Assembly (NCBI GenBank): GCA_048882045.1
Contig: JBHLRZ010000013.1
Span: 1-64,000, forward strand
DNA from: Candidatus Thorarchaeota archaeon
GTDB lineage: Archaea; Asgardarchaeota; Thorarchaeia; Thorarchaeales; Thorarchaeaceae
Direction of reading: 5' to 3'
DNA length: 64,000 nt
Below are positions 11,785-39,860 of the stretch, one piece after another. Position numbers and translations under genes: made by a program. The notes under the pieces were generated by a model. It ran no database searches and was not told the DNA's origin. It saw nothing but the letters and a program-made list of their open reading frames with translations. Each line of letters begins with the position of its first letter. Within the stretch, counting starts at the first letter, position 1.

Positions 11785-12351
11785 ATGAAGAAACGACTCC
11801 TCGTCTGCCTGACCGGTGCAAGCGGAGCAATCTACGGAGTCCGGTTGCTTCGGGCTCTGAAAGAGAATGGTCATGAGGTTCATTTGATTGTGTCCAAATG
11901 GGGGGAAGAAACGCTCAAGTACGAAACAGGACTGACTGGGGCGGATCTAGGCAAAGAAGTAGACTTTACGTATCAGGAAACAGATCTGGCAGCAGGTCCA
12001 GCGAGTGGTAGTTTTCCAATCGACGCTATGGTGGTAGTCCCATGCACTATGAAGACTCTTGCTGGGATTGCACATGGCTATGCTGACAATCTTATTGCGC
12101 GAGCGGCTGACTGCAGTCTCAAGGAGCGAAGAAAGCTAATCATTGTTCCTCGCGAGTCACCACTCAATTTGATACACATTAGGAACATGGCAGCAGTGAC
12201 AGAAGCAGGAGCCATAGTGATACCAGCCAGTCCTGCTTTTTGGGCAAAGCCAAAGACGATTGAAGAGCTCGTCGATTCGGTTGTTGAGAGAATCCTCTCA
12301 CACATCGGTGTTGATCAGGACTCAGTAGCTATATGGACAGGCGATAGCTAA
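11785..12351 (+). CDS. ubiX: Flavin prenyltransferase UbiX
   Basis: TGASGAIYG, PASGS, PCTMKTLAGIAHG.ADNLI.RAAD..LKERR.LI.VPRESP. Confidence 0.93.
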   Translation: MKKRLLVCLTGASGAIYGVRLLRALKENGHEVHLIVSKWGEETLKYETGLTGADLGKEVDFTYQETDLAAGPASGSFPIDAMVVVPCTMKTLAGIAHGYADNLIARAADCSLKERRKLIIVPRESPLNLIHIRNMAAVTEAGAIVIPASPAFWAKPKTIEELVDSVVERILSHIGVDQDSVAIWTGDS

Positions 12352-14213
12352 CTCCAGTGCAATGGAGTTCCACAGTGGTCGCAAATCACGGTTTCACCAG
12401 GAAGGGCTCGTTTCCGAAGTGCTGCACCACACTGGGCACACTCGATCTTCTTTGGGGCGATATCTCCAGTTTTTGCTTGGAGCTTGAGCAAGACCTCCCT
12501 GAGGTTCTCACGCATTTCAGAGAGCAGGAGCTCCATCTTGTCCTCATCATTACTTGCGACAGATATTCGCATTGTTAGATTCTCTTTCGAAACCGATCCA
12601 ATTACTATGTATTCAGTACCAGCCAAAGCCTTACCATAGAACCACGATTCTTCGCCATTCCTCGAATTACTCTTTTCTCCTACGAACTTCACACTCTGCT
12701 GTTCTATTACATCATTCACGATGTCGAGCATCTCTTGGACATCAGCATCAGGATCGATTTGGTATTCAGCCGCTCGTTCAGACTGAAGTCGAGTTTCGAG
12801 AATTTTCTCCAAGTCAGACATACTCATTGTAGAGAGATACGCATCCCGTGCCATTGCAGTATGATCATTTGGTACTTCGACTTTACTCTCACCATGATTG
12901 TCGCAGATAAGAATGACCTCTGATTTATCCCCTTTCTCCTGAATTTCTGTGAGATTCAACGGATTGTGACACTTGTGACATTCATAGAGCTGGCGATAGA
13001 ACCGTTCAGTGATTGTCGCGTCAGCCTTAATGTGGAGTTGTCTTTGGGTACCATGTCCGTTTCTGCATTCCATTTTGAGTTCTACGAGATCATCGCGAAC
13101 TTTCGTATCCCGTATTGTCATTGGAGATGTACACTTTTCACACTTCAGACTCTCCTCTATGGAAGGCATCAAGTCGATGTGAGGGGCTCTCTCTTCAACA
13201 TGTTTGAAGATTCCGACAGCTACGCCTTTCTTGAAGTCACCATGAATAGGACATACAAGCTTCAACTCAACATTGTTCCCACTGACTTTTGAATCAATGA
13301 TGTCAGTGGTTAGGTCACAATCATTACATTTCAAGACTCCATAGACTATGGAGTCGATGGCTTCTTCATCAAGTTCCACGGGTTGCGAGAGTTCCACGCC
13401 ATGCCCGTTCTTACAACTGCATTTGAGCTTGTACTTCATCTTGTCAAGCTCAATAGTTTTTATTGAAACAGGGTTACCACAATCTCTACAGTTGAGCATG
13501 GATTTTACAATACTACCCTCCGACATAGCCTCAACAATTGATTCGAGCATCCAAGCATACTCCGCTGGTAGCTCCTTCTTTGATTTTCCATGTGCAGGAC
13601 ATGCAAGCTCTATACGGGCTTTATTCCCCTTGGGTTGCGTTTCTAATACTTGACATGGCAGCCCGCATTCATCACAATGGATGAGTCGCTTGACAACAGT
13701 CTTGAGGACTGATTCATCTGCAACCTTCGGAACGAACCTCATCTCTTTATGTCCGTTAGAACAGCGAGCTTTCACCTCGAGTATTCCTTTCTTATCTGTG
13801 ATTTCATGAGCAATGAAAACCTCACCGCACTTTGCACAGCTCAAAGAGTCTAAGATAGATTTTGAGCTGTTCATACTGCTTTGGAGACCAGTAATTGCAG
13901 TATGATAGAACGCTGGTATCGAACGGATCTGGGATCCATGTATCGGGCAAATGAACGTATACTCAGCCTTCTGTCGTCCAACATCCGTGTTCATCAGAGA
14001 CATTGTGGAACCGCACTCGATACAAGTGAAGATACCTTCAAAGACCTCATGAGCCATACTGTCAGCCTGATACTTTGAGATGTCTCGTTTACCTTTGTGA
14101 CCATTCAGGCATTGACAGTAGACACGAAGTGTACTTCCCCTCAACTCACCCGTCAGAGCGTAGAATGGTTCCTTGCATTTCTTACAAGTGAACAAGTTTC
14201 CTCTCTCCACCAA
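12348..14213 (-). CDS. Multi metal-ribbon repeat protein (8 repeats, platform-like domain, C-terminal C4 ribbon)
   Basis: Eight CxxC-x~19-C(xx)GH/CPxHG units; C-terminal CAQC..CDHC. Confidence 0.8.
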   Translation of the reverse strand: MVERGNLFTCKKCKEPFYALTGELRGSTLRVYCQCLNGHKGKRDISKYQADSMAHEVFEGIFTCIECGSTMSLMNTDVGRQKAEYTFICPIHGSQIRSIPAFYHTAITGLQSSMNSSKSILDSLSCAKCGEVFIAHEITDKKGILEVKARCSNGHKEMRFVPKVADESVLKTVVKRLIHCDECGLPCQVLETQPKGNKARIELACPAHGKSKKELPAEYAWMLESIVEAMSEGSIVKSMLNCRDCGNPVSIKTIELDKMKYKLKCSCKNGHGVELSQPVELDEEAIDSIVYGVLKCNDCDLTTDIIDSKVSGNNVELKLVCPIHGDFKKGVAVGIFKHVEERAPHIDLMPSIEESLKCEKCTSPMTIRDTKVRDDLVELKMECRNGHGTQRQLHIKADATITERFYRQLYECHKCHNPLNLTEIQEKGDKSEVILICDNHGESKVEVPNDHTAMARDAYLSTMSMSDLEKILETRLQSERAAEYQIDPDADVQEMLDIVNDVIEQQSVKFVGEKSNSRNGEESWFYGKALAGTEYIVIGSVSKENLTMRISVASNDEDKMELLLSEMRENLREVLLKLQAKTGDIAPKKIECAQCGAALRKRALPGETVICDHCGTPLHWS

Positions 14214-14286: not shown

Positions 14287-16560
14287 CTACTGGAGATATA
14301 GAGCGATAGTAAGTGAGTGTGTACAGTATTTGCAACGAACTGGGAGCCTTCTTCCTAGCTTCTCAACCTGTTCAATCTCGAGTGGAGCCCCACAACGAAG
14401 ACAGACCCATGAATCCATGGTATCAGCCAGCTCATCTATTGTAGTTGGGAGCATAGAAACATCTTCTCCCAATGCTTCGACTCGTACAGTTGAATGCCGT
14501 CCATTTTCTGGTCCGCTGATGAGAAGAACAACTGCTACCTTTTTCTGTGTATACTTGCCCTCTGCATAGCCACGGATTGTTCCTATGAACTCTCCAGAAA
14601 CTAGTTTTTCCTCTGCGTCTACAATATGGAAGTTCTTAGCTGGGAGAATCTTCTCGGCTTTTGTATACAATACTTGAGCATTCCAATCCAATGTCTGCTC
14701 CTGTTGAGTCTTCTCAAGTCCCATTAACACAAGTTCAAACGTCCTACTTGTTTCCTTTAGAGGTTGAAGGAGATCACAAACAGATCTGATGAGGAAAGGC
14801 TCAACGTTCACGGTATGGAGTTGGTCGAGGAAATCAATGTAAGAAACTGTCGCTACAACTTTACCTTGAACACAGTCCTTTGTTGGATAAAGTGTGAACT
14901 GGGGACTTCTGAAACCTCCTACTTCAATTCTAGAGATAGTCTTCACGTTCTCACCTGCAAGTTCCATGCAGTCCCTAGGATAGGCGATCATACTTACTGT
15001 GACATTAGTAATGACATAACCACTGTCGTTCTTTACTTTAACCTTGAAATCGAACTTGCCACCCACTATTTCGCAACCACGAAGCACTTGGACACCGTGG
15101 TTGACCCCTGCTGGTTCATCTGAAACTTCGAGGATTTCTGCAGGTTTTGGTTCAGGAGCTTCTGTTGGAGGTTTGACCTTGTCCTCCTGCATCTCATCAT
15201 ATGCCATCTGCATGGCTTCCGCGTGGTCAGGGGGTATATCTAATACGGTTTTTCCATGAAGAGAACAGAGTAAAACAACTCGGTCTTCTCGATCCCTGGG
15301 TTCGATATATACTAGGTCAAGTGGTTCGTAGCACTCAGGACATTGATAGAGCTGCTTGTAAAGACCTGAAAGTGTTTCCTGATCCAGACCAGGGATGAAG
15401 AGTCTTTTGCTTCGATGACCATTTCGACACTCAGTATCGAACTCAATAAGACCTCTACGTTCTTCAACATCTCGGACATTCATGGGCATACTGCATTTCT
15501 CGCAACTGAGACTACGAACAATTGAAGGCATTCTGTCAATAGAAGGTTCGAACTCCTCAACTATCTTGAAGACATCCGGTGATACTACACGGTTCATCAC
15601 TCCATGTATGGGACAAACTATTCGGAAGTCGACCTTCTTCTTGCCTTTCTTCTTGTCAAGAATATGAGTTAACTGGCCACACTCCTCACAAGTCAAAACC
15701 GCATGAGTAATCCGATTGGTGACTGGTTCACTCCATGATAACGGTAGGACCCGGTCAGAGGTTTGCTTTGTTCCAGGACAGACACATTTGAGTCGATAGC
15801 CTTGTTTTGTTTCCTCGATTTCTCGAATAGCTAAGTGCTTCCGACATTCATGTGATGTGAGAGTCGATTTGACGACTGCATCTTCAGGAATTTCGGCCAC
15901 TGCCTCTTGAAGCAGGTCCAGCTGAGTACCAAGGATATCCTTTCTAACGACTCCATGTATTGGACATGAAGTTTGGACTCGTGCTATGTTTCCACGCTTT
16001 TCAACATGGGTTATGTGTCCAGGAAGGCCACATCGATCGCAATGAACGACCCGCTGCAGGATATTCTTCAGAAGAGTAGTTTCAATTGAAGTTGGTAGAT
16101 ACCTGGTAGCTTTGTGTCCATTAGCACAGCTCGTATCGACCTCCAAGATTCCTCGGCGTTGATCAAGCTCGTTGACAACATACACTAGACCACACTGTGG
16201 ACATCTGAAGGAATCGATAATAGATCGAGGACTATCCACCACACCTCCAACGAGATCAACAACAGAATTGAATTCTAGAGGATATTCTCGTTTCTGAGGC
16301 CCATGGATCGGACATAGGAAGAGAGATTCAATCTTATTTCCTTGGACTCTTTCCTCGATGTGGGTCATATTGAAACCACATTCAGTACAGGTATACAGTC
16401 TCTTGAAGACGTCCGACGCTATCTCTTTTGCCTGGTGTTCGGAAAGACGGCGAACACTCTTGTGACCTTGAAGGCACTGAACATCCATCGTCAGAATCTT
16501 GTCCTTCATTTCAGCACTATGAATGAAGAGCGGGTCACCGCAGCGTTTGCACTGGAACAA
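14287..16560 (-). CDS. Multi metal-ribbon repeat protein with Ig-like plus platform (appendage-like) domain and C-terminal C4 ribbon
   Basis: Eight repeats as in the neighbour (5th degenerate), Pro-rich linker, beta-sandwich, alpha/beta domain, CLRC..CKYC. Confidence 0.8.
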   Translation of the reverse strand: MFQCKRCGDPLFIHSAEMKDKILTMDVQCLQGHKSVRRLSEHQAKEIASDVFKRLYTCTECGFNMTHIEERVQGNKIESLFLCPIHGPQKREYPLEFNSVVDLVGGVVDSPRSIIDSFRCPQCGLVYVVNELDQRRGILEVDTSCANGHKATRYLPTSIETTLLKNILQRVVHCDRCGLPGHITHVEKRGNIARVQTSCPIHGVVRKDILGTQLDLLQEAVAEIPEDAVVKSTLTSHECRKHLAIREIEETKQGYRLKCVCPGTKQTSDRVLPLSWSEPVTNRITHAVLTCEECGQLTHILDKKKGKKKVDFRIVCPIHGVMNRVVSPDVFKIVEEFEPSIDRMPSIVRSLSCEKCSMPMNVRDVEERRGLIEFDTECRNGHRSKRLFIPGLDQETLSGLYKQLYQCPECYEPLDLVYIEPRDREDRVVLLCSLHGKTVLDIPPDHAEAMQMAYDEMQEDKVKPPTEAPEPKPAEILEVSDEPAGVNHGVQVLRGCEIVGGKFDFKVKVKNDSGYVITNVTVSMIAYPRDCMELAGENVKTISRIEVGGFRSPQFTLYPTKDCVQGKVVATVSYIDFLDQLHTVNVEPFLIRSVCDLLQPLKETSRTFELVLMGLEKTQQEQTLDWNAQVLYTKAEKILPAKNFHIVDAEEKLVSGEFIGTIRGYAEGKYTQKKVAVVLLISGPENGRHSTVRVEALGEDVSMLPTTIDELADTMDSWVCLRCGAPLEIEQVEKLGRRLPVRCKYCTHSLTIALYLQ

Positions 16561-16650: not shown

Positions 16651-17151
16651 TTATTGATCCGTATCTTCTTCTTCCTCGTCTTCAACTATCTCTTCAACAT
16701 CAACAATCTCAGGTTCAGATTTGGGTTCGTCTCTCTTTCTCTGCTGAGCCTCCAGAAAATCTTCTAGGTTCTTCACAATAGGAATATCAATTCTTTGAAG
16801 TGCAATAGAGAACCCATAGAAGAGTAACATGACATTCCCAATTATGCTGAGTACTGGTGCAATCACCAGACCAGCCAACGGAATAAGAAGAGTAAATGGT
16901 GCAATCACGTAAATCAAACCACCAATGAGTAATCCTGGTAGTGCAGCGGATATTGGCCTACTCATCGCCGCCTGAGCTGTTGCAATGATTGTCAAAGCGA
17001 ATCCACATGCTGAAACAAGTGGAGCCAATAACAGTGTCAGAGGTGCTATAAGCCAAATGACTGCACCAACTAGGATTAACAAGAAATTTGGTGATGTCCA
17101 TATTTGTTCGAATACTTCTCTTTGATCACTCAACTTCCTCACCAATATCAC
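16651..17151 (-). CDS. Small membrane protein with acidic tail
   Basis: Four hydrophobic helices (internal two-fold repeat: IWLIAPLTLL / IYVIAPFTLL), Glu-rich C-terminus. Confidence 0.6.
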   Translation of the reverse strand: MILVRKLSDQREVFEQIWTSPNFLLILVGAVIWLIAPLTLLLAPLVSACGFALTIIATAQAAMSRPISAALPGLLIGGLIYVIAPFTLLIPLAGLVIAPVLSIIGNVMLLFYGFSIALQRIDIPIVKNLEDFLEAQQRKRDEPKSEPEIVDVEEIVEDEEEEDTDQ

Positions 17152-17196
17152 AACGCGGGGAGTGAGAGATATTATGTATTTTGGAGTGTCATTTGT

Positions 17197-18468
17197 CTAC
17201 TGAGTTCCAGTTGCATCGACACTTTCCAGGATAGCGTCAGCTGACTTCTTCAACTTAGACCGATATCCACGAGTTGTATAGACACGGACTGGTTTCAAAA
17301 TCCTAGTGAAGCTTCTTGCCATTGGGCTCATATCAGTCACTTTCCAGAATTCGTAGCCACTGGAACCACGCTCGAACAGGACGAGATCTTCTAGATTGTA
17401 GCGACCGGGATAGTAGGTGACTGAAGCCCTGTCTGGGAAATCTATGTAGACATTACTTGGGTCGATTCCAGCATCGTCTGCAATCTCTTTCTCTGTCTCG
17501 TAAAGTCCGTCTGGCGTAGAGAGCCTCGCTAGAAATGTCGGATCTGAGAGTGCTCTCGAGCTCACCAGTTTCACAAGATTTCTCTGGCTGAAGTCACGGA
17601 ATATTCGGTTTGCAATACGTAGTTCTTCTGACGCATCGTCTTCGACTTTCAAGAGGCGATGGAGAAATGTGAGATCATCGATTTGGAAGAACTTTGCGTC
17701 GTCTGTGGGAAGTGGGAATAACTGGGAACCAGCTTCATCAAGCACTCGGAGGAGCATGAGTTCCGCTGCACGGACGGTTTTGTGGAAGTATACAGCATCG
17801 AACATATTGGCAGATGCTGACAAATAGGACTCAAGAGTGAACAATGAACCCCTTTCTACTGCAATCTTGTTCTTCGCAATCCTTGTAGAGGAGAACAGTC
17901 GTCTGAATTCTAGTTGGGCATATTCAACACCCGCAAAGTATGAGTCTCGTTCCAGATCATCTATCAGCTCAGGATTGATAGGACAATGAGTCAAATCTAT
18001 ATATGTCCCTTTGAGTGGAACACCTTTCAAAATCAAGTCACCAACCTCAGCCTTAGTGAAGCCATGTTTTTCAACGAGATCTCCAACCTCAGTTTCTTTC
18101 AGAAGGATCTCTCCAATTTTGGGTCTGTTGACCCCTCTGACGGTAAGGTACTCCTCCGATACATTAGCCCATGGACCATTTGTGAGCATCAGTAGGAGAG
18201 AAGCCAATCGACCTCTGAGAACCTCTTCCAACTCACCACCAAGATATTCTATGAAAAGCTCGGTCATATGCATGAAACCTAAGGTCCGGCCCAACAGAGA
18301 TATTGCTGCCCCTGGGTAGACCAACGAAATTCCTGCAGGTCCTTGGATGTATCGGAGTCTCTGACTAACACGAAGGTCAATGATTTCTTTCTCTAACTGG
18401 GTCAGAGCTACGTATCCATGAATTGGGTCCTTTATCTGAAGCACAGATGGTAAATCAGTCACTGGCAT
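17197..18468 (-). CDS. HD-domain protein of the SAMHD1/dNTPase-like family with degenerate metal site
   Basis: IKDPIHGY, QRLR, VYPGA, RDSYFAGV, VYFHKTVRAAE; the H..HD..D ligands are missing. Confidence 0.8.
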   Translation of the reverse strand: MPVTDLPSVLQIKDPIHGYVALTQLEKEIIDLRVSQRLRYIQGPAGISLVYPGAAISLLGRTLGFMHMTELFIEYLGGELEEVLRGRLASLLLMLTNGPWANVSEEYLTVRGVNRPKIGEILLKETEVGDLVEKHGFTKAEVGDLILKGVPLKGTYIDLTHCPINPELIDDLERDSYFAGVEYAQLEFRRLFSSTRIAKNKIAVERGSLFTLESYLSASANMFDAVYFHKTVRAAELMLLRVLDEAGSQLFPLPTDDAKFFQIDDLTFLHRLLKVEDDASEELRIANRIFRDFSQRNLVKLVSSRALSDPTFLARLSTPDGLYETEKEIADDAGIDPSNVYIDFPDRASVTYYPGRYNLEDLVLFERGSSGYEFWKVTDMSPMARSFTRILKPVRVYTTRGYRSKLKKSADAILESVDATGTQ

Positions 18469-18574: not shown

Positions 18575-20410
18575 ATGAACAGGTTGTGGACTGTTGCATT
18601 CTTCACATTCATTTTATTCATTCCATTGACATACTCGAGTCCCGTCGCAAGAGAAGACCCAATGACGCCAGCAGACACAACACCCCCAGGAATCGACAGG
18701 ATATATGGCGAGCTAATCGTTGATGAGATCTATGAAAAAGTAAGAGACACAAATCTTCGAGATATCGTTCAAAAAGTCACTGAGAATGGATCACGCTATC
18801 TAGAGGGAGGATTCCCGGTTCATAATGGACCGAACTACGACCTCAGACAGTATCTGATAGAACAAATGGACGAACTCTCTCAAGGCAGACTCGAGATAGA
18901 GATCATTGGAAACTATGATAACATTGTAGCGAAACTACCAGGCTACCTACCTGGGGAGCAACCAGTCTTTGCTGTGACAGCCCACTACGACTCACCCGAT
19001 CAAAGTCCTGGTGCCAACACTGATGGCATTGGCATAGCAGCAGTCCTCACATTAGTCGAAGTGATGTCGCAGTACGAGTGGCCACTTGACATCTACTTTA
19101 TGGTGTTCAATGGACTCCATCCAGCAGCACCAAGTTTCTTCATGGAAGGGAGCAAAGAAACTGCTATTATTCTGAGAAATCGCGGATTGGAAACACTCGC
19201 CCTCTACAATGTGGATACAATTCTGTTTCCCCACCCATCTGTTCCGCTAGATGCCCAAGTGCAGTTTGGATATGATATCGGAAGCTACTCGTTGGGGCGT
19301 TATTGGGCAGAACTCGCAAGGGCTATGAGTAACAACTATGGAAATGATGTGATACTACCAGTACCCTCTTTGAATTTCGCGCTTTGGCCGTATTCTGATC
19401 ATTATGCTTTTGCTGCCCGTGGGTTCTCCGGGGCTTTGTGTGCCTTCGAGTCAGGTTATGCAGTAGATGATGCATACCACGATATTACAGACACTTGGAA
19501 TAATCCAACGTATCGTTATGATCTAGGACATGAAGTGACCGGAGCAATTGGAGCAAGTATGGCTTTTACCATGAGTAAGACATACGGAAAACCACAGAAC
19601 CTTCAGTATTCACTAATCATAGAGGAAGAAGACACGGAAAGAATCTACATTCAGATAAGTACACCAACCCGACTTGAGATATCCTGTAGATGGTACGGTG
19701 GCCCTGCAACATTTACACTATATGACCCAAGCGACGTGGCAATTGGATCACGTATCTATAGTAGCGCTTCAGCCTGGGAATATACGGACCTCTATGATCT
19801 TCAAGTTTCTAGTCAGGGTCTGTATACCCTCGCAATGGAAAACACAGGACCAGAATCAATCGGGTTCGTATTGAATGTGACACACAATACTGACATAGAT
19901 GAGAATGGGATTCTCGACCACAACGAGTTCTGGTTGGATTCAGAGTATTTCAGTACCGATGAAGATTCAGACGGTCTTTCAGCGGCTATGGAGGTATTCC
20001 TCAATACTGATGACACTTCAGCGGATTCCGATGGTGACACCATGGATGACAAGTTCGAGGTGGACAATGGTCTTGATCCAACAGACCCATCTGACGCGAG
20101 TAGAGATGAAGATGGAGACGGACTTACAAACGCGCAGGAATATTCTATTGGACTGAACTTATTCTCTGCGGACTCGGATCAGGACCAGATGGATGACCTG
20201 TGGGAGTTGGAGAATGGACTGAATCCACTGTTTGATGACTCGATGCTCGATCCTGATGGTGATGACAGGACCAATCTCCAAGAGTATCTCGAGGGAACAG
20301 ACCCGAATGTTGCGGAACAAGAACCTATCCCGATTGAGTGGTTCATAATACCTGGTGTAGCTATTGCGCTTATAGTAGGGTTTCTTTACTACCAGAGAAT
20401 CAAGTTTTGA
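18575..20410 (+). CDS. Membrane-anchored M28 peptidase-like protein with DxDxDG Ca-binding repeats (altered active site)
   Basis: Signal peptide, AHYDS, PGANTDG, SDH, YH; DSDGD repeats; C-terminal TM. Confidence 0.8.
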   Translation: MNRLWTVAFFTFILFIPLTYSSPVAREDPMTPADTTPPGIDRIYGELIVDEIYEKVRDTNLRDIVQKVTENGSRYLEGGFPVHNGPNYDLRQYLIEQMDELSQGRLEIEIIGNYDNIVAKLPGYLPGEQPVFAVTAHYDSPDQSPGANTDGIGIAAVLTLVEVMSQYEWPLDIYFMVFNGLHPAAPSFFMEGSKETAIILRNRGLETLALYNVDTILFPHPSVPLDAQVQFGYDIGSYSLGRYWAELARAMSNNYGNDVILPVPSLNFALWPYSDHYAFAARGFSGALCAFESGYAVDDAYHDITDTWNNPTYRYDLGHEVTGAIGASMAFTMSKTYGKPQNLQYSLIIEEEDTERIYIQISTPTRLEISCRWYGGPATFTLYDPSDVAIGSRIYSSASAWEYTDLYDLQVSSQGLYTLAMENTGPESIGFVLNVTHNTDIDENGILDHNEFWLDSEYFSTDEDSDGLSAAMEVFLNTDDTSADSDGDTMDDKFEVDNGLDPTDPSDASRDEDGDGLTNAQEYSIGLNLFSADSDQDQMDDLWELENGLNPLFDDSMLDPDGDDRTNLQEYLEGTDPNVAEQEPIPIEWFIIPGVAIALIVGFLYYQRIKF

Positions 20411-22287
20411 TGCTAGCTGAGTGGTGGTTGAAACTTGTGAAAAGGTTGTTCGTGGCGACTTTCTTTATAGCTATCATTGTGTGTCCAGTAGGTGCCTTAC
20501 GTCTCGACAAAATTGAGAATCCTGTGATAGTGTCGGATACAACTGAGCCAGACCTCGAACGAATATACGGTCGAATAGTGGCCGAAGAGCTGTGGCAAAA
20601 CATAACAGCTTCTGAAATTCTTGATATTATCAGAAAATTCACAGAGAATGGGACTCGATTTGTGTCAGCTGTGGGAGATGTAGAAGATGATCAGGGAGCA
20701 AACAAAGCAGCCAGACTTTACATTATTCAACAGCTTGAAGAATTGACTCATGGAAGAATAGAGATTGAACTCATAGGTCAATATGCAAATGTGATTGGCA
20801 AGTTGCCTGGTTACCTGCCTGGAGATCATCCAGCGTTTATTGTGTCAGCCCATTACGATTCGCCATCGGGTTGTCCTGGTGCGAACTGTGATGGTAGTGG
20901 AATTGCTGTCATGCTTACCTTGGCTAGAGTGATGTCCCAGTACGAGTGGCCACTTGACATCTACTTCATGGCATTCAATGGACTACATCCACACGGTATA
21001 TTGTGGTCAGACTTCTATGAAGGAAGTCAAGAAGTTGCAGGTGAACTGAGACATCGAGGATTCCAGAACCTAGCAATGTTCAACATCGATACGATTCTCC
21101 ACCCTGATCCGGATGCACCGACTGATCAACGATTATTGATGGGATTCAATGTCTATGCATCGTATACAGCAAGTCAATACTGGGCAGAACTTGCTAAAAC
21201 GATGAGCGACTACTATGGTAGAGGAGAAATCACTTCAGTTCCAGGAATAATACAGATTCCAATCTGGGATCTTGCTGATCATGTCCCATTCTTCAACAGA
21301 GATTTTCCTGGAGTTGTCACTGCCTTTGAATCAGGCTACGAAACTGATGCGGTGTATCATACAGGTTCAGATGTCTACTACAATCCAGGGTATAACTATG
21401 GACTTGCCAAGGAACTCGCGGCTACTATAGGTGCTTGTATGGGGTACACTATGGGAAGGACATTTGGCAAACCAAGACAAATCAATACATCAATCATCAT
21501 TGAGAATGAGAGTGTAGAAACATTCTACATTCCTATTACAACACCGACAAATCTGGAAGTCATATGTAGATGGTTTGGTGGGCCAGCTAGTTTCTATCTC
21601 AGGGACCCAAACAACGCACTCATTGGAATTGCAGAGTTCGATGAACCGTCAGCCTGGGAAGCAGTCAAACTCTTTGATATACCCGTTTCAGTTGAAGGTC
21701 TGTACTCACTATCTATTGTAACGGGTCATGAAGATGTCGGGTTTGAGATGTCCTATACCTTTGATACAGATATTGATGGAAATGGTGTTCTAGACCGTAA
21801 TGAGTTTTGGTTGGATCCAGTCTACTTCGTTACTGACCTAGATGGAGATGGATTATCTGCTGCTGATGAGCTCTTCCTAGGCACTGATGATGAGAACATA
21901 GATTCAGATGGCGACTCCATGGATGACAAGTTCGAAGTGGATAATGGTTTTGACCCTACAAATCCTTCAGACGGCGCTGGTGACGCGGATCACGATGGTC
22001 TAACTAACACAGCGGAGTATTTAATGGGTCTGAATCTATTCTCAGCGGATTCGGATCAGGACCGGATGGATGACCTTTGGGAGGTTGAGAACGGACTGAG
22101 ACCACTATTTGATGACTCAATGCTCGATGCTGATGGCGATGGCAAGACCAATCTGCAAGAGTATCTGGAGGGAACTGATCCACAAGTTGAAGAAAAAGAA
22201 GATGTGCCTGTAATCTGGTTAGTCGCACCATTTATTCTGATTGCAGTCATCGCAGGGTTTGTTTATGTTGGAAGGGATTATTTCTGA
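20410..22287 (+). CDS. Membrane-anchored M28 peptidase-like protein, paralog 2 (altered active site)
   Basis: Same architecture; start probably ATG 20410 (TGATG overlap) or GTG 20437. Confidence 0.8.
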   Translation: MLAEWWLKLVKRLFVATFFIAIIVCPVGALRLDKIENPVIVSDTTEPDLERIYGRIVAEELWQNITASEILDIIRKFTENGTRFVSAVGDVEDDQGANKAARLYIIQQLEELTHGRIEIELIGQYANVIGKLPGYLPGDHPAFIVSAHYDSPSGCPGANCDGSGIAVMLTLARVMSQYEWPLDIYFMAFNGLHPHGILWSDFYEGSQEVAGELRHRGFQNLAMFNIDTILHPDPDAPTDQRLLMGFNVYASYTASQYWAELAKTMSDYYGRGEITSVPGIIQIPIWDLADHVPFFNRDFPGVVTAFESGYETDAVYHTGSDVYYNPGYNYGLAKELAATIGACMGYTMGRTFGKPRQINTSIIIENESVETFYIPITTPTNLEVICRWFGGPASFYLRDPNNALIGIAEFDEPSAWEAVKLFDIPVSVEGLYSLSIVTGHEDVGFEMSYTFDTDIDGNGVLDRNEFWLDPVYFVTDLDGDGLSAADELFLGTDDENIDSDGDSMDDKFEVDNGFDPTNPSDGAGDADHDGLTNTAEYLMGLNLFSADSDQDRMDDLWEVENGLRPLFDDSMLDADGDGKTNLQEYLEGTDPQVEEKEDVPVIWLVAPFILIAVIAGFVYVGRDYF

Positions 22288-22309
22288 CCGAAGAATCTGA
22301 GGTTTTTCA

Positions 22310-24130
22310 ATGAAAAGGGTTCTAATGATAATCATCTTCGTGTCGCTTGTAGTGACACCTGTTGATTTCGCAGCCGCCACAACTATTGAGAGAGGACCTG
22401 CAACCTCGAAAATAGTTGTTGAACCTCTTTCTCAGACGAGGGTATATGGCGAAGACCTGTCTGAAACGATATTCAGAGGTATTTCAGTTGACTCCTTCAG
22501 AGACTTCTTGATACAGCTCACGGAGAATGGCTCACGGTGGATTACAGGTCCAGATGGAAGGAGCGATGCAAACAGAGAAGCTCAGGATTGGATTGCTGAA
22601 GAGCTTATCAGAGTATCAGACGGGAGAATAGAAGTCGAGATCATCGGGGACCACCATTCTGTCGTAGGAAAGTTGCCAGGATATTTCCCCTACGAAGCTC
22701 CTGCACTGCTTGTAGGTGGACATTATGACAGCGTTGTTGAATCACCAGGAGCAAATGACGATGGGGTTGGAGTAGCAACAATGCTTGAGCTTGCGCGTGT
22801 TTTCTCTCAGTATGAGTGGCCACTTGATGTGTACTTTGGAGCTTGGAATGCAGAGGAAATCGGCTTAGTTGGAGCAAGAGAGGTTGCACAGGAGTTTCAG
22901 GACAGAGGGATTGACATCCTGGTCTATTACAATATCGACATGCTGCTAGTCAGAAACCCCTATGCACCAGACAGTCGCGCTGTTTTGATGGCATATCCGG
23001 ACATGGCGTATCATGATGGTCAATATTGGGCTGAACTGGCAATGCTCATGAGCAGACAATATGGAAACGGATTGATCCTTCCCATTTCTTCAAGTAGTTT
23101 CTCAGGGTGGGAACGCTCAGATCATTGGGCATTTATTACAAAAGGGTATGAAACCTCACTCTTCGCCCATGAGAGTGGTTTTGAATATGACGCGGCATAT
23201 CATACTAGTCAGGACAGATGGGACAACACGTTATACAACTACACAATAGGAATAGAAGTCGTCAAAGCAATTGGTGCATGTTTTGCATACATAATGAGTA
23301 GAGAGTATCAAAAGCCCGTTACAGAAGAGATTAGGTTCATTCTTCATGAAGGGGAAGAACGAGTCTTCTATCTACCTGTGACTACTCAGACATCAGTCAA
23401 TGTTACATGTCGTTGGTGGGGAGGATATGCAGATTTCCTTCTGAGAAACCCATCGGATGTACTGATAGGTGCCTCCTATAACAGTGAGAGTTCAGCTTGG
23501 GCACCAACAAACGTGATGAATCCAAGTGTTTCAGAATTTGGAATACACACACTCACTGTATTCAATCCAGGACATGAAATGACTGGATTTGAACTCTTGT
23601 TTGAATATGAGTCTGACATCAATCGCAATTTCGTTCCGGACAGCCAGGAGTTTTGGTTTGATGCATCTTATTTCTCTCTAGACTCTGACTCAGATTTACT
23701 CAGTGATGCTGACGAGTACATCATTGGAACCAAACCAGACTCCCCAGATTCGGACTCAGATACAATGCTGGATTCATGGGAGCTCGAGTTTGGGCTAAAC
23801 CCTCTCTTTTCTGGGGATGCTGAACTGGACCCTGACTCAGATGGGGTCTTGAACAGAGACGAATACACCAATAATACCAATCCCCACTCACAGGATTCAG
23901 ATCAAGACGAAATCCCTGACAAATGGGAGATAGATAATAATCTTGATCCAATGTACAATGACGCCCTGGAAGATCCTGATAATGATGCAGTAACTAACCT
24001 TGACGAGTACTTAGAAGGGACGAATCCGCACTATGCAGAACTCAGGCTAGAAAGATATGTTATACCCATCTCAGCAGTTGGCATTGCTGTTGTTCTTTTC
24101 GTTTCATATGTAGTTCGACGAAGAATTTAA
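22310..24130 (+). CDS. Membrane-anchored M28 aminopeptidase, paralog 3 (intact motifs)
   Basis: GHYDS, PGANDDG, LELAR, NAEEIGL, NIDM, SDH, YHT; DxDxD repeats; C-terminal TM. Confidence 0.88.
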   Translation: MKRVLMIIIFVSLVVTPVDFAAATTIERGPATSKIVVEPLSQTRVYGEDLSETIFRGISVDSFRDFLIQLTENGSRWITGPDGRSDANREAQDWIAEELIRVSDGRIEVEIIGDHHSVVGKLPGYFPYEAPALLVGGHYDSVVESPGANDDGVGVATMLELARVFSQYEWPLDVYFGAWNAEEIGLVGAREVAQEFQDRGIDILVYYNIDMLLVRNPYAPDSRAVLMAYPDMAYHDGQYWAELAMLMSRQYGNGLILPISSSSFSGWERSDHWAFITKGYETSLFAHESGFEYDAAYHTSQDRWDNTLYNYTIGIEVVKAIGACFAYIMSREYQKPVTEEIRFILHEGEERVFYLPVTTQTSVNVTCRWWGGYADFLLRNPSDVLIGASYNSESSAWAPTNVMNPSVSEFGIHTLTVFNPGHEMTGFELLFEYESDINRNFVPDSQEFWFDASYFSLDSDSDLLSDADEYIIGTKPDSPDSDSDTMLDSWELEFGLNPLFSGDAELDPDSDGVLNRDEYTNNTNPHSQDSDQDEIPDKWEIDNNLDPMYNDALEDPDNDAVTNLDEYLEGTNPHYAELRLERYVIPISAVGIAVVLFVSYVVRRRI

Positions 24131-26606: not shown

Positions 26607-27504
26607 AGGTTCTCATCACAGTATCCCAGCGATGCTGGATGAACGCTTCGAAATCAGCTATCTTCTTGTCATCTCGTTTAGGTTTGAAGAGATGCGAGAA
26701 TCTACCCTGAAGTTTCAGGAAATCATCGATTGGTTTCCTCTTCTCCGGGTCTTGGAATCTCTTACTATGTCTTCCAAGTATGAACTCATCACCAATCCTC
26801 TCCCATTGAATCCAATATCCGGTTTCAACTGCAAGTTTTCCGATCTCAACGCCCTTCTCAACTGGATAGTTCCAAGCTTGCGGACATGGAAGGAAGATAT
26901 GTCCAAATTTGGGACCTTCATATTCTCGTGCCTTCTGGAATTTTTCAAACAGGTCTCTAGGATAGGATGTGTTCGCAGTGAACTGATACACAGGCTCATG
27001 GGCTGCGACAATAAGATCGAGCATTTTCTCAGGCTCAGTCTTACCAAACCAAGTAGTTGTTGTCTTTGCATGGAGGGGAGTAGCTCCGGAACGCTGTGTG
27101 CCCGTATTGCTGTAGACCTGGTTGTTGTAACAGATATAGAGAAAGTCAGTCCTACGCTCCAATGCCCCACTTAGAGCCTGAAGACCAATGTCAAATGTTC
27201 CACCATCACCAGCCCAGACCATCACCATTGTGTGGTCGTTTCCTTTTGCTTTCAGTGCTGCTTTTACTCCAGAAGCTGTTGCTCCAGAAGCCATGAATGC
27301 TGTGTTCAGAACAGGAATCCCGAGTCCACTCTTTGGCCAGAGTGATTGCACGACACTTGTACAACAGGCAGGTACTACTTGGATGACATCACCCTCGAGA
27401 GCTTTGTGAGCATGTCGAAGAGCTACCATGTCTTGACAACCTGCGCAAGCGGCATTTCCTTTCAGTACGTATTCTTTGAGTGGCATATCTTTCGTTGCTA
27501 CCAT
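26599..27504 (-). CDS. porB: Pyruvate/2-oxoacid:ferredoxin oxidoreductase beta subunit
   Basis: ACAGC, GDGGTFDIGLQALSG, YSNTGTQRSGATP, PCP; start MVATK at 27504. Confidence 0.92.
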   Translation of the reverse strand: MVATKDMPLKEYVLKGNAACAGCQDMVALRHAHKALEGDVIQVVPACCTSVVQSLWPKSGLGIPVLNTAFMASGATASGVKAALKAKGNDHTMVMVWAGDGGTFDIGLQALSGALERRTDFLYICYNNQVYSNTGTQRSGATPLHAKTTTTWFGKTEPEKMLDLIVAAHEPVYQFTANTSYPRDLFEKFQKAREYEGPKFGHIFLPCPQAWNYPVEKGVEIGKLAVETGYWIQWERIGDEFILGRHSKRFQDPEKRKPIDDFLKLQGRFSHLFKPKRDDKKIADFEAFIQHRWDTVMRTFT

Positions 27505-27506
27505 CT

Positions 27507-28688
27507 TCACTCCTCCATTAGGTTGTGCCAAGTCTCTTCGGGATCTAGCTCTCCGCTCTCAACCGAGTTGAATGTGTCCAGGATTACAGTCTTGATATCA
27601 GGAACTGTCATGTCCCGACCTCCTAGGCCACCGATGTAGCTCTTAATCATCGGTCGATACTTAGTATGATACATCGAGGATCTTATGTCATTGGCAACAG
27701 GACCACCAAATCCATACGACACTCCGCGGTCAAAACTGGCAAACGCCTTCACCCGACTTCCGAGTTCACGTATCTTCTCCACGGGGAATGGGCGAATCAT
27801 TCTCATCCTGGCGTTTCCTACTTTGTATCCTTCCTCCCTCAGTTCGTCGATGGCATCCTTTGCCTCAGCACCAATAGAGCCCTGTGAGGTGAACACAACC
27901 TCAGCATCATCACATCTGTAACAGTCGATAGGTCCTCCAAAATGCTTGCCAAAGAGTTTCTTGTAGTCCTTCTCAACTTCTTCATAGACCTTGAGAGCAT
28001 TCTGTGTCCCCTCATGCATCATGTATCTGAACTCCTGGTAGTGCTCAGGAAAAACTATGTTGCCATGTGACACTGGATTCTCAGGATCCATGACCCAGTG
28101 TGGAGGAGTATATGGTGGAAGGAACTTGTCGACTTCCTCTGCCTCAAGATAATCAAAGGTTGAAAGCGTGTGACTGAGTACAAAACCATCTGCGTTGACC
28201 ATCACTGGCATGAGGACACGCTCATCTTCTGCAAGTTTGAAGGATTGAATGATTGTGTGGTACAACTCGTCAACACTTGAAACATAGAATTGAATCCAGC
28301 CGGTATCACGTTTGGAGTAGGAATCATCGTGTGTCACATGAATGTTCCAGCTAGGTGAAACAGACCGATTAACATTGTTCAGTACAATAGGCAGTCTGGC
28401 TGCAGCGGCCCAGTGCAAAGCCTCATCCATTAGAAGAAGTCCATTGGATGATGTTGCAGTGAAAGCTCTTGCTCCGGTTGAGCTTGCTCCAATGCAGGCA
28501 AACATCGCAGAGTGCTCAGACTCAACCCTGATGAACTCGCCCTTGAAAATACCCTTCTCATTCAGCAGTGCAATCTGTTCTGGTACGGTAGTCGCTGGTG
28601 TGATTGGGTATGCAGCAACCACCTCTACCCGAGCTGAAACCACAGATCTTGCGGCAGCATAGTTTGCACTCATGAGTTCAGTTTTCAT
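27507..28688 (-). CDS. porA: Pyruvate/2-oxoacid:ferredoxin oxidoreductase alpha subunit
   Basis: AYPITP, VESEHSA, TATSS.GL, DGF.LSH, GLGGRD. Confidence 0.92.
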   Translation of the reverse strand: MKTELMSANYAAARSVVSARVEVVAAYPITPATTVPEQIALLNEKGIFKGEFIRVESEHSAMFACIGASSTGARAFTATSSNGLLLMDEALHWAAAARLPIVLNNVNRSVSPSWNIHVTHDDSYSKRDTGWIQFYVSSVDELYHTIIQSFKLAEDERVLMPVMVNADGFVLSHTLSTFDYLEAEEVDKFLPPYTPPHWVMDPENPVSHGNIVFPEHYQEFRYMMHEGTQNALKVYEEVEKDYKKLFGKHFGGPIDCYRCDDAEVVFTSQGSIGAEAKDAIDELREEGYKVGNARMRMIRPFPVEKIRELGSRVKAFASFDRGVSYGFGGPVANDIRSSMYHTKYRPMIKSYIGGLGGRDMTVPDIKTVILDTFNSVESGELDPEETWHNLMEE

Positions 28689-29005
28689 ACTTCACCAGTC
28701 CTCCTCTTTCGCTCATCAGTTCTGAGCATCTCGATACAATGCTTCGGACAGACCTGGGCGCAAATGCCGCACCCCTTACAATAGTCATAGTCCGTGTGAG
28801 GAGTTCCATCCTCATCCAAGCTGATGACAGCCTCGGGGCAGTGGAGCCAACATGTGCGGCATCTGTTACACTCATCATAGTCCACAACGGGATCAAAAGT
28901 GCGCCAGCTGCCAGTCTTACCTGTAGCACCAATGGTGGGTTTGGAGTAAGATGTCTTTGGCATTTCCTTCCTGCTCTTTGGCTCGGTATTTACCTCGTTT
29001 ACCAA
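28685..29005 (-). CDS. porD: 2-oxoacid:ferredoxin oxidoreductase delta (2x[4Fe-4S]) subunit; start uncertain
   Basis: KTGSWRT..PV, CNRCRTCWLHCP, DYDYCKGCGICAQVCP. Confidence 0.9.
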   Translation of the reverse strand: MVNEVNTEPKSRKEMPKTSYSKPTIGATGKTGSWRTFDPVVDYDECNRCRTCWLHCPEAVISLDEDGTPHTDYDYCKGCGICAQVCPKHCIEMLRTDERKRRTGEV

Positions 29006-29153
29006 CCAGATCCACGTCCACTGAAGGCCTACATGGGCTCGCGTTAACACAGACAATTAAGCGTTATGATACTGTTGATAGGGGAACTACATGATTCGGT
29101 TGCCTTATCAGATTGAAAGCCTACGAGAGTATAATCAACGAGGTTGATTTAGA

Positions 29154-29957
29154 TTGGAGTTCACTATTACTCATGTCCAAATGCCCTGTGAGGAGGGAAA
29201 TCGAGAAGGCAACTTCAAACGTGCAATGTACCTTTTGGAACAGCGGAAGGCAGGAAAAGGAATTCAATTCATTCTTCTGCCCGAGTTGTTTGCAATTGGA
29301 TTTCGTCATGAAGACTATGGGAAAGAGGGACAAGGCGTTCCAGGTCCAACTGCAGATTTCATTTGTTCAATCGCGGAAGAACATCAAGCCTACACAGTCG
29401 GTACTGGAATTGAGAAGACTGGAGAAAAGTATCACAACACACTCGTGATGGCAAAACCCAACGGTGAACTTCACGGGACCTACAGCAAGATACACCCCTT
29501 CCAGGAAGAGAAAGATGTCTTCGAAGGTGGAGATACTATTGCCATGTTTGAGTGTTCAGGCATCAAGGTAGGAGTCGAGATTTGTTATGACATAAGATTC
29601 CCTGAAGTCACACGAAAACTTGCACTTGAGGGTGCTGAGATAGTACTTGTTCCTGCAGCATTTCCGGATCCCAGAAGTGAACACTGGAACACCCTGGTTC
29701 GAGCACGAGCAATTGAGAATCAGATTTTTGTCGCTGCGACAAACCGTATTGGGTTTGGATTCGATGGGAAAACCTACTTCGGACACAGCCAGACCGTTGA
29801 TCCCTGGGGAGTGGTTCTTAACAGGCTGAACACAGAGGAACGTTTAGTCGCAACTCAATCGGATACTGATATGATAGAGAGTGTAAGGTCTCAGATCACC
29901 TGTTATGCTGACATCGCTCCTTCAGGATATGAGAGAGTCGTTTGGTTCAAAGAATAG
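29154..29957 (+). CDS. Carbon-nitrogen hydrolase (nitrilase/omega-amidase family)
   Basis: LPELF, YSKIH, ICYDIRFPE triad, RARAIENQ, DPWG. Confidence 0.9.
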   Translation: MEFTITHVQMPCEEGNREGNFKRAMYLLEQRKAGKGIQFILLPELFAIGFRHEDYGKEGQGVPGPTADFICSIAEEHQAYTVGTGIEKTGEKYHNTLVMAKPNGELHGTYSKIHPFQEEKDVFEGGDTIAMFECSGIKVGVEICYDIRFPEVTRKLALEGAEIVLVPAAFPDPRSEHWNTLVRARAIENQIFVAATNRIGFGFDGKTYFGHSQTVDPWGVVLNRLNTEERLVATQSDTDMIESVRSQITCYADIAPSGYERVVWFKE

Positions 29958-30020
29958 TGTGAGAAACACAAGCGTTAAGTGAATGACCTGGTGTGCCTAT
30001 AATGATTGGAGGAGTAATAG

Positions 30021-30530
30021 TTGAGCAATCAGACAGACCTCATCAGAGAATCTATTCGTGACTGGTTCTCTCGTGAGGGAATCAAAGTAGAAACCATCAA
30101 GAATCCAAAGGCGGAGTTCTTGTTCAAGGTCAAGTTCCTCAGATTCTTCTTTACAGTGGTTCGACCCAATGACCAGAGGTTCGTTCAGTTCGAGTCACAA
30201 ATAATGATATCACCTCAGCATCAGCAGCTCCTCAATGTAGAGAAGATGCGAGAGTTCCAGATGAACGCCATGAAGTTCTCATTCCAGGAGGGCTTTAACA
30301 TGGGATTCGTGCAGCCAAGACCTGGACAGCCGGGACCACAACCCCCAGGTCCAGGATTCGTCATTTCTGACCGAATCTACGATGATGGATTCACAGAAGA
30401 CCATCTATGGAGAATAATGCGTAAACTTCACGGGGCCATTGACATGGTAATTGCAATGCTTAACGATGTCACAGGACAGATTGGTGGAAAACCAGATACC
30501 ACTGACACTGGACCTACGTACTATACATAA
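30021..30530 (+). CDS. DUF2299-like hypothetical protein
   Basis: IRDWF..EG, ISPQHQ, IYDDGFT pattern. Confidence 0.55.
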   Translation: MSNQTDLIRESIRDWFSREGIKVETIKNPKAEFLFKVKFLRFFFTVVRPNDQRFVQFESQIMISPQHQQLLNVEKMREFQMNAMKFSFQEGFNMGFVQPRPGQPGPQPPGPGFVISDRIYDDGFTEDHLWRIMRKLHGAIDMVIAMLNDVTGQIGGKPDTTDTGPTYYT

Positions 30531-30640
30531 TGTGACCAGCTCGATTGTTTTTAGAGACCTATACATAGTAGCTCTCCTTTTTTTGAATCAGAGGAATTAA
30601 CAAGAGCGCTGGTACAACTGCGGATTAGCTGTTACGCCGT

Positions 30641-39619: not shown

Positions 39620-39860
39620 ATGCAATAATGGAAAAATGACTCATAGATCTAAACCACGAGTGTGTATTGAAGTGACACCCACAGTTTATTGATATGGCTA
39701 AATGTCAGTGTTAACATACTCAACAAGAGGTTCTTGGCACATCTTGAGATTGTTGAAAAGAAGACTAAATGGTCCAGACTTTGGCTGAAGAAAGTACATT
39801 AAGCCAAGGAATACTGTGCTGAGATACTCCATCATAGCGAGTCACCATCGAGGTCAGAAC

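Follow-up and report, generated by a model that had tools for sequence, protein, structure and literature searches.

The 64,000-nucleotide stretch of Candidatus Thorarchaeota DNA analysed here (hereafter the window; contig JBHLRZ010000013.1, positions 1 to 64,000) encodes on its minus strand a 757-residue protein, P0001 (14287..16560), in which a zinc-ribbon array is followed by a C-terminal domain resembling the appendages, or ears, of vesicle-coat proteins. The reading that we favour, and consider reasonably probable, is that P0001 carries a coat-type ear and a C4 zinc ribbon as a mobile cytoplasmic module, which is tethered to a soluble rod of eight ribbons and would serve as a protein-docking knob. 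The case for this reading comes from the predicted structure of the module, from its matches to the appendages of COPI and of the AP adaptor complexes, and from the wide recurrence of the same module in other Thorarchaeota proteins.

Predicted structure of the ear module

The last 281 residues of P0001 were modelled with AlphaFold2 from an alignment of 44 homologues, with a predicted local distance difference test score (pLDDT) of 94.8 and a predicted template modelling score of 0.84. The model shows the last 268 residues of the protein as a single rigid module in which a C4 zinc ribbon follows an immunoglobulin (Ig)-like beta-sandwich and an alpha/beta platform. The sandwich lobe (residues 490-593, model residues 14-117; 14782..15093, minus strand) has eight strands with pLDDT > 90 and superposes on the sandwich of the COPI, alpha, beta2 and gamma-COP ears; its motifs GFRSPxF, PTKDCV and VSYxD are conserved across the family. 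The platform lobe (residues 594-716, model residues 118-240; 14413..14781, minus strand), which is assigned a TBP/helix-grip-like fold from the model and its structural matches, is near-invariant at model positions V118, C119, L121, L122, P124, F132, L163, N167, F168 and G192. F132, N167-F168 and G188-x-A-x-G-K-Y-T195 make up a conserved patch together with the SVCDLLxP junction. As in the ear superfamily, the sandwich leads directly into the platform and the two form one unit, both in the model and in a single superposition over both lobes.

The C4 ribbon (residues 717-757, model residues 241-281; 14290..14412, minus strand), with its CxxC...CxxC motif at 720-746, is predicted to pack on the ear. 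This part is modelled as confidently as the rest of the module (pLDDT 94-97 up to model residue 280), and the family consensus retains WxCxxC...CxxC here. The superpositions on adaptins end at model residue 235-241, before the ribbon, and the matched eukaryotic ears, unlike that of P0001, carry no C4 ribbon.

A preliminary description of this locus had proposed an ear of linked sandwich and platform in the interval 14400-15100. This interval corresponds to residues 488-720, a near-exact match to the two modelled lobes (490-716), and the strings quoted in that description are all present in the minus-strand translation, namely the linker PPTEAPEPKPAE and the segments FKVKVKNDSGYVITNVTV, GKVVATVSYID, VCDLLQPLKETSRTFE and TVRVEALGEDVSMLPTTIDEL. 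The anatomy that it gave was correct for sandwich and platform, and both lobes appear in the model as a linked Ig and platform fold; it was incomplete in overlooking that the C4 ribbon is integral to the module as its third part, and in overlooking the relatives with membrane tails described below.

Across the ear family, two near-invariant cysteines stand beside an aspartate, one in PTKDCV in the sandwich and the other in SVCDLLxP at the junction of sandwich and platform. The cysteine of SVCDLLxP is replaced in P0269, a paralogue that combines HEAT repeats with an ear.

The remainder of P0001 consists of the array and a tether. The N-terminal array (residues 1-455; 15196..16560, minus strand), recognised by a motif regular expression and Pfam, comprises eight units of about 55-60 residues each, in which CxxC...CxxGH alternates with CxxC...CPxH. 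Unit 5 is degenerate; the seven intact C2-CH units identified by the regular expression occupy residues 4-33, 58-86, 120-149, 174-202, 291-319, 353-382 and 407-435. In Pfam, P0001 matches zinc-ribbon-type families alone, with DUF7479 at 28.7 bits and the rest under the cut-off, and NCBIfam and Pfam together returned zinc-ribbon families only, the ear core being left with no match. The array is followed by a flexible linker of 34 residues that is rich in proline and glutamate (residues 456-489; 15094..15195, minus strand), delineated from the sequence and from low pLDDT: the first 10 residues of the model have a pLDDT of 53, and secondary structure is absent until model residue 13. P0001 thus has the hinge that is typical of ears in the form of this tether ahead of the sandwich. 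A hydrophobicity check of P0001 and of its tandem paralogue P0002 revealed no hydrophobic segment or membrane helix in either. Two plus-strand open reading frames that overlap the P0001 gene (14264-14569 and 14764-15123) were judged to be shadows of the long minus-strand gene because 757-residue orthologues are conserved.

Structural matches to coat appendages

The model was compared with the Protein Data Bank (PDB) using Foldseek and with representatives using a VIA search, followed by VIA over the Foldseek list; on the VIA scale, Z of 7-8 is typical for unmatched models. The first 14 Foldseek ranks were all COPI and AP2 appendages (E 3e-10 to 4e-07, ~240 aligned columns), and VIA gave Z from 18.1 to 13.8 for the coat appendages matched over both lobes, with 208-225 aligned residues. 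The top match overall was the COPI chain 9qpq_H (Z 18.1, root-mean-square deviation (rmsd) 4.1, 225/243 residues, chain residues 721-953), which we take to be beta-COP from its residue numbering. The AP2 ears were aligned over 207-218 residues, with Z of 16.6-17.1 for alpha (1w80_A: Z 16.7, 211 residues) and 14.3-14.7 for beta2 (3h1z_A: Z 14.3, 208 residues); they were followed by the gamma-COP ear 1r4x (Z 13.8, 213 residues) and by BBS9 of the BBSome (6vbu_9: Z 12.0, 188 residues).

The best match to the platform as a single lobe was the AP-4 beta4 platform (2mj7: Z 13.1, rmsd 2.3, 113 residues, 17% identity), and single-lobe Ig matches, which included TRAP subunits, a glycosidase Ig domain, transglutaminase and complement MG domains, topped out at Z 12.9. 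The matches that span both lobes are all coat or BBSome appendages, with the coat appendages ranking above every single-lobe Ig domain; therefore, the proposal of a coat-type ear withstood the comparison, the search being led by two-lobed appendages (9qpq_H, alpha, beta2, gamma-COP, BBS9) and not by generic Ig or CARDB domains. In the ESM-Atlas, the named clusters nearest to the module likewise belong without exception to ear families of adaptins or coatomer, with scores of 0.82-0.87 that by the calibration of the tool constitute a lead only; the nearest cluster overall (score 0.93) is an archaeal family of 243 residues that is commonest in Methanobacteriota.

The superpositions show that the first two lobes of P0001, as modelled, share their fold and mutual arrangement with the COPI beta/gamma and AP alpha/beta appendages. 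The ears of beta- and gamma-COP (9qpq chain H, 5nzr_B, 1pzd/1r4x, 5a1u_E) are, like that of P0001, rigid combinations of sandwich and platform located at the C-terminus behind a flexible linker. However, the identity is only 11-14%, and the trunk of COPI is an alpha-solenoid, whereas that of P0001 is a zinc-ribbon array, as the preliminary description had stated. Consistently, the trunks of P0001 and P0002 have no HEAT or Adaptin_N match in Pfam, and the alpha-solenoid of ~600 residues found in AP and COPI subunits is missing. The AP2 alpha and beta2 ears and the AP-4 beta4 platform (1w80, 3hs8, 1b9k, 1e42, 3h1z, 2mj7) have their lobes in the order seen in P0001, and the succession of hinge and ear is common to both; HMMER, however, detects no sequence similarity between them and the P0001 ear, and the resemblance carries no implication of clathrin, of an AP core or of sigma/mu partners. 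The GAE domain and platform of the BBSome subunits (BBS9 and BBS1/2/7; 6vbu, 6xt9, 6voa) match the sandwich and platform over 188-192 residues at Z of 10.4-12.0, which is below the scores of the COPI and AP ears, and the beta-propeller N-termini and coiled coils of the BBS proteins are absent from P0001.

A cytoplasmic tail of Thorarchaeota surface proteins

When used as the query of an exhaustive HMMER search, the module gave 395 clusters at 50% identity, including 252 at E up to 1e-10. Of 301 genomes sampled from the phylum, 121 contain the module by this query, among them 70 of the 76 that belong to the same family, where it is often present in multiple copies; some genomes of four other families also match, at weaker E-values. 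The proteins that carry it range from 168 to 2867 residues, and the module is nearly always C-terminal. In 38 long members, the outer, N-terminal domains include SBBP propellers, Big_13, beta-helix/NosD, PKD, TSP3, LVIVD, FG-GAP and SBP_bac_5 solute-binding domains. Most of the members that have no array contain a hydrophobic helix 24-130 residues upstream of the module, and many also possess a signal-like helix at the N-terminus; in other carriers, the part that precedes the module is a short HEAT stalk or one or two membrane helices at the N-terminus.

Lysine and arginine residues beside the upstream helix are strongly biased toward the module, with a mean of 4.5 on the module side compared to 0.17 on the far side, and the module side is higher in 42/42 proteins. 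Because of this bias and of the Cys4 ribbon, we place the module in the cytoplasm, and its occurrence on such different carriers shows it to be a mobile cytoplasmic unit. Surface proteins of Thorarchaeota thus commonly carry the ear with its ribbon as their inner tail, and the soluble ribbon-array proteins, including P0001, are one branch of the family.

Eukaryotic ears, and the published interpretation of archaeal appendages, suggest by analogy that the ear would act as a protein-docking knob on a flexible tether. The ears might bind a shared cytoplasmic partner, short motifs, each other or the ribbons, and the soluble ribbon-array proteins could then connect the ear-tailed membrane proteins within the same network, as adaptors or cross-linkers. 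It is from this analogy that we infer docking, the existence of a partner and any role in sorting.

Paralogues of P0001

Five copies of the module were identified in the source genome, namely P0001, three tandem paralogues on another contig and the divergent, ribbon-less P0269. The last of these, which belongs to a conserved family of about 406 residues, is a protein of 411 residues with N-terminal HEAT repeats (approximately three; Pfam HEAT_2) and an ear that aligns to the module at an hhalign probability of 99.6%. Its model contains seven helices, a disordered linker, a sandwich and a platform, and for this model Foldseek ranks full-length gamma-COP first and the beta2 and beta-COP ears next. 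P0269 lies outside the window, within a coat-like cluster (contig C14, about 27188-31348) that consists of genes for a Roadblock/LC7 protein (minus strand), a Ras-family GTPase (plus), a WD40 propeller (minus), P0269 itself (plus), another Ras-family GTPase (minus) and a small zinc-ribbon protein. This locus ties the ear family to a coat-like set of domains.

The three tandem paralogues (contig C18, about 42751-47350) are proteins of 370-420 residues, each with 1-2 N-terminal membrane helices, a basic linker and an ear with its ribbon. The tandem is interrupted by a gene for an EamA transporter and is followed by a PRC-barrel gene, and a K(K/R)PI(P/A)G motif recurs in all three linkers, some 30 residues ahead of the ear.

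Directly downstream of P0001 lies the gene for P0002, a tandem paralogue of 621 residues (12348..14213, minus strand; translated portion 12351-14213) identified by translation and motif regular expression. Over the array, the two proteins are 36-37% identical. P0002 has eight intact C2-CH ribbons followed, with no sandwich in between, by a platform and a C4 ribbon. Residues 463-618 align to module positions 127-274, that is, to platform and ribbon (hhalign against the module alignment, probability 96.3%, E 1.7e-9). The platform-only remnant of the ear thus comprises residues about 463-576 (12486..12827, minus strand), and the ribbon, which carries CxxC...CxxC at 592-614 and aligns to that of the module, comprises residues about 590-621 (12351..12446, minus strand). 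The gap between the last ribbon of the array and the start of the platform alignment is just 22 residues, which leaves no room for a sandwich; by alignment, P0002 appears to keep platform and ribbon only. The preliminary description, whose quoted strings WFYGKAL and MRISVASNDEDKMELLL are present in the P0002 translation, had anticipated that only the platform half was left, and the alignment bears this out. In Pfam, P0002 has a sub-threshold match to PF16381, Coatomer_g_Cpla (E 0.19, 12.3 bits compared to a cut-off of 31.2, profile positions 16-113 of 115), and a match to the recombinase zinc beta-ribbon family (E 5.5e-10). The 757-residue gene is present in all four orthologous loci of other genera and the 621-residue gene in one of the four (G046), which suggests that P0002 is a lineage-limited tandem duplicate that has lost the sandwich.

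Relation to the eukaryotic ear families

Several observations weigh against the favoured reading, and most of them concern sequence. The Pfam models for coat appendages (Alpha_adaptinC2, Alpha_adaptin_C, B2-adapt-app_C, Coatamer_beta_C, Coatomer_b_Cpla, COP-gamma_platf and Coatomer_g_Cpla) did not match P0001 at E up to 1. For the 44 module homologues, no appendage family appeared among the best 25 of 138 families, which were all ribbon families, and a search of the whole genome with PF14806, PF07718 and PF16381 detected no ear module anywhere. When a profile of the module was compared to all PDB sequences, adaptin and COP chains were absent from the matches at E up to 10. The FxxxW motif, through which the platforms of the AP2 alpha, gamma-COP and beta-COP ears bind their ligands (PMC2262067), is out of register in the module when compared by sequence only, a shifted equivalent being conceivable: F132, located in the first helix of the platform, is present in 40/44 homologues, position +4 is Leu in 32/44, and a conserved Trp is found at +18 in 29/44. 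[quoted passage not shown] Finally, the structure of P0001 is a predicted and not a solved one, and any function is inferred.

Two weak matches from these searches were rejected. The single match of PF07718 (E 0.23) is away from any ear and contains a stop, and the top match of the module profile among PDB sequences, the C-domain of beta-arrestin (E 0.7), is not significant.

Because the Pfam coat-appendage models miss the module, the preliminary characterisation of it as a prokaryotic relative of coat appendages is supported at the level of fold only, and the sequence searches do not support membership of the P0001 module in the ear families.

These observations bring up the possibility that the module is a convergent or generic pairing of an Ig sandwich with a helix-grip/TBP-like domain that shares no descent with the eukaryotic ears, and that it is a structural element of self-association or anchoring, which would cluster surface proteins, or immobilise them, from within, with the soluble ribbon proteins as cross-links. 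The folds of the two lobes are each widespread, with numerous single-lobe matches at Z of 9-13, and the missing sequence signal, the displaced FxxxW positions, the additional C4 ribbon and the predominance of surface-protein tails in the family would all fit convergence. However, the superpositions over both lobes are exclusively with coat or BBSome appendages, and those with the coat appendages stand above every single-lobe match. Moreover, the order of the lobes, the hinge before the ear and the HEAT-stalk paralogue in a locus with GTPases and a WD40 protein echo the layout of coats, and the language-model neighbours are all ear families. We regard convergence as rather unlikely, although it is the alternative that survives best. 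Common ancestry of the module and the eukaryotic ears is likely, on the basis of fold, lobe order and language-model similarity, not of sequence statistics. Even if the ear only self-associates surface proteins, the family provides a useful annotation for several hundred clusters of 'hypothetical' Asgard proteins.

Coat origins, earlier reports and alternative roles

The origin of the vesicle-coat machinery is an open question in eukaryote origins. Pieces of this machinery are known in Asgard genomes, including small GTPases, longin, TRAPP, Sec23/24-like proteins, ESCRT and appendage-like regions, and a working picture is missing. Within one Asgard class, a coat-type ear is shown here to be modular, abundant and present in multiple copies; its carriers are rods of zinc ribbons, membrane anchors that follow large surface domains, and a HEAT stalk. 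With these concrete, expressible proteins, one can look for the partners of an archaeal ear and address the question of whether 'hinge plus ear' docking predates eukaryotes. A far-reaching version of the argument, which we consider quite unlikely, is that Thorarchaeota possess an ear-based sorting network near the root of COPI and AP. Under this model, dozens of surface proteins would carry ear tails, the ear proteins with ribbon rods (P0001 and P0002) or with a HEAT stalk (at the locus with WD40, Roadblock and two Ras-family GTPases) would be primitive adaptors or coat subunits that gather these tails, and the eukaryotic ears would descend from the module.

Appendage domains have been reported in archaea before. 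In a 2021 preprint, Liu et al. described Asgard Vps28/Vps23 fused to C-terminal domains of adaptin and COPI subunits (10.1101/2020.10.19.343400). Makarova et al. subsequently identified adaptin appendage regions, composed of an Ig-like and a TBP-like domain, in Methanobacteriales, Halobacteriales and Asgard, in proteins denoted Meth_adaptin and Halo_adaptin and in Asgard proteins with Vps28-C, longin and appendage domains; a zinc ribbon is present in one Meth_adaptin protein, and in another a membrane linker leads to its other domain (10.1101/2024.02.06.579148). The same authors interpreted the archaeal appendage regions as interaction modules and placed the appendage domain in the last archaeal common ancestor (10.1101/2024.02.06.579148). 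P0001 contains the combination of Ig-like and TBP-like domains by which those archaeal proteins are recognised. In view of these reports, the ear kind was already known in Asgard and other archaea, so that the novelty implied in the preliminary description does not extend to it; P0001 is a new architecture of this known kind. In a literature search, the supplementary tables of Makarova et al. aside, we found no report of an eight-ribbon array joined to an ear, of an integral C4 ribbon or of an ear as the tail of surface proteins. There is also a difference in context: it was ESCRT domains or neighbourhoods that led to the previously described proteins, whereas the P0001 family has no ESCRT domain or neighbour.

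This difference bears on another alternative, in which P0001 would be a sorting adaptor linked to ESCRT and ubiquitin, with ribbons that bind ubiquitin or ESCRT components in the manner of NZF/UBZ fingers and an ear that recruits cargo or ESCRT-II, as has been proposed for the Asgard proteins with Vps28-C, longin and appendage domains. The association of archaeal appendage regions and zinc ribbons with ESCRT loci (10.1101/2024.02.06.579148) is in accord with such a role, as are weak ribbon matches to Vps36-NZF-N, zf_UBZ and zf-Sec23_Sec24. However, these matches are all sub-threshold, falling under the curated cut-offs, and neither a fusion nor a neighbourhood of the ESCRT type (Vps4, ESCRT-III, Vps28-C, steadiness box, winged-helix proteins) was observed in P0001, P0002 or the locus conserved across five genera, where longin is missing as well. 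An ESCRT adaptor is accordingly very improbable. The weakest of the alternatives, a nucleic-acid-binding or transcription-related zinc-ribbon protein whose TBP-like platform touches DNA or RNA, has in its favour the automatic Joint Genome Institute names (RPC12/RpoP, Elf1, topoisomerase Zn-finger), the recombinase zinc beta-ribbon match of P0002 and the TBP/helix-grip-like platform, but can practically be set aside because most relatives have the ear and ribbon anchored at the membrane's inner face, and also given that the names reflect generic CxxC ribbons only and that the top structural matches include no TBP or other DNA-binding chain.

Gene neighbourhood

The genes around P0001 encode two ABC transporters, PadR, DUF2070, UbiX, a two-helix membrane protein of 166 residues, an HD-associated protein and three M28 peptidases. 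The gene order is conserved in four other genera, where orthologues of 757-780 residues occupy the same syntenic position. No longin, sigma-like or Arf gene adjoins P0001, no trafficking gene is present within the locus across the five genera, and the content of the locus points to no pathway. The genes for the HD-associated protein, the small membrane protein, the 757-residue protein and the 621-residue protein run in the same direction and are separated by 45-90 bp. The pair upstream of the ear gene (16651-18468, minus strand) encodes the 166-residue membrane protein, which has an acidic tail, and a 423-residue protein with the HD-associated region; together with the ear gene, in an arrangement conserved in other genera, this pair may form an operon.

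Elsewhere in the window, on the plus strand, the M28-family peptidases are three tandem paralogues of 606-649 residues (18575-24130), the first of which has a region of acidic TSP3-like repeats and a hydrophobic segment at its C-terminus; related genera have one such gene. Further along the same strand (30641-44318), two very long open reading frames, of 2992 and 1500 residues, are arranged in tandem.

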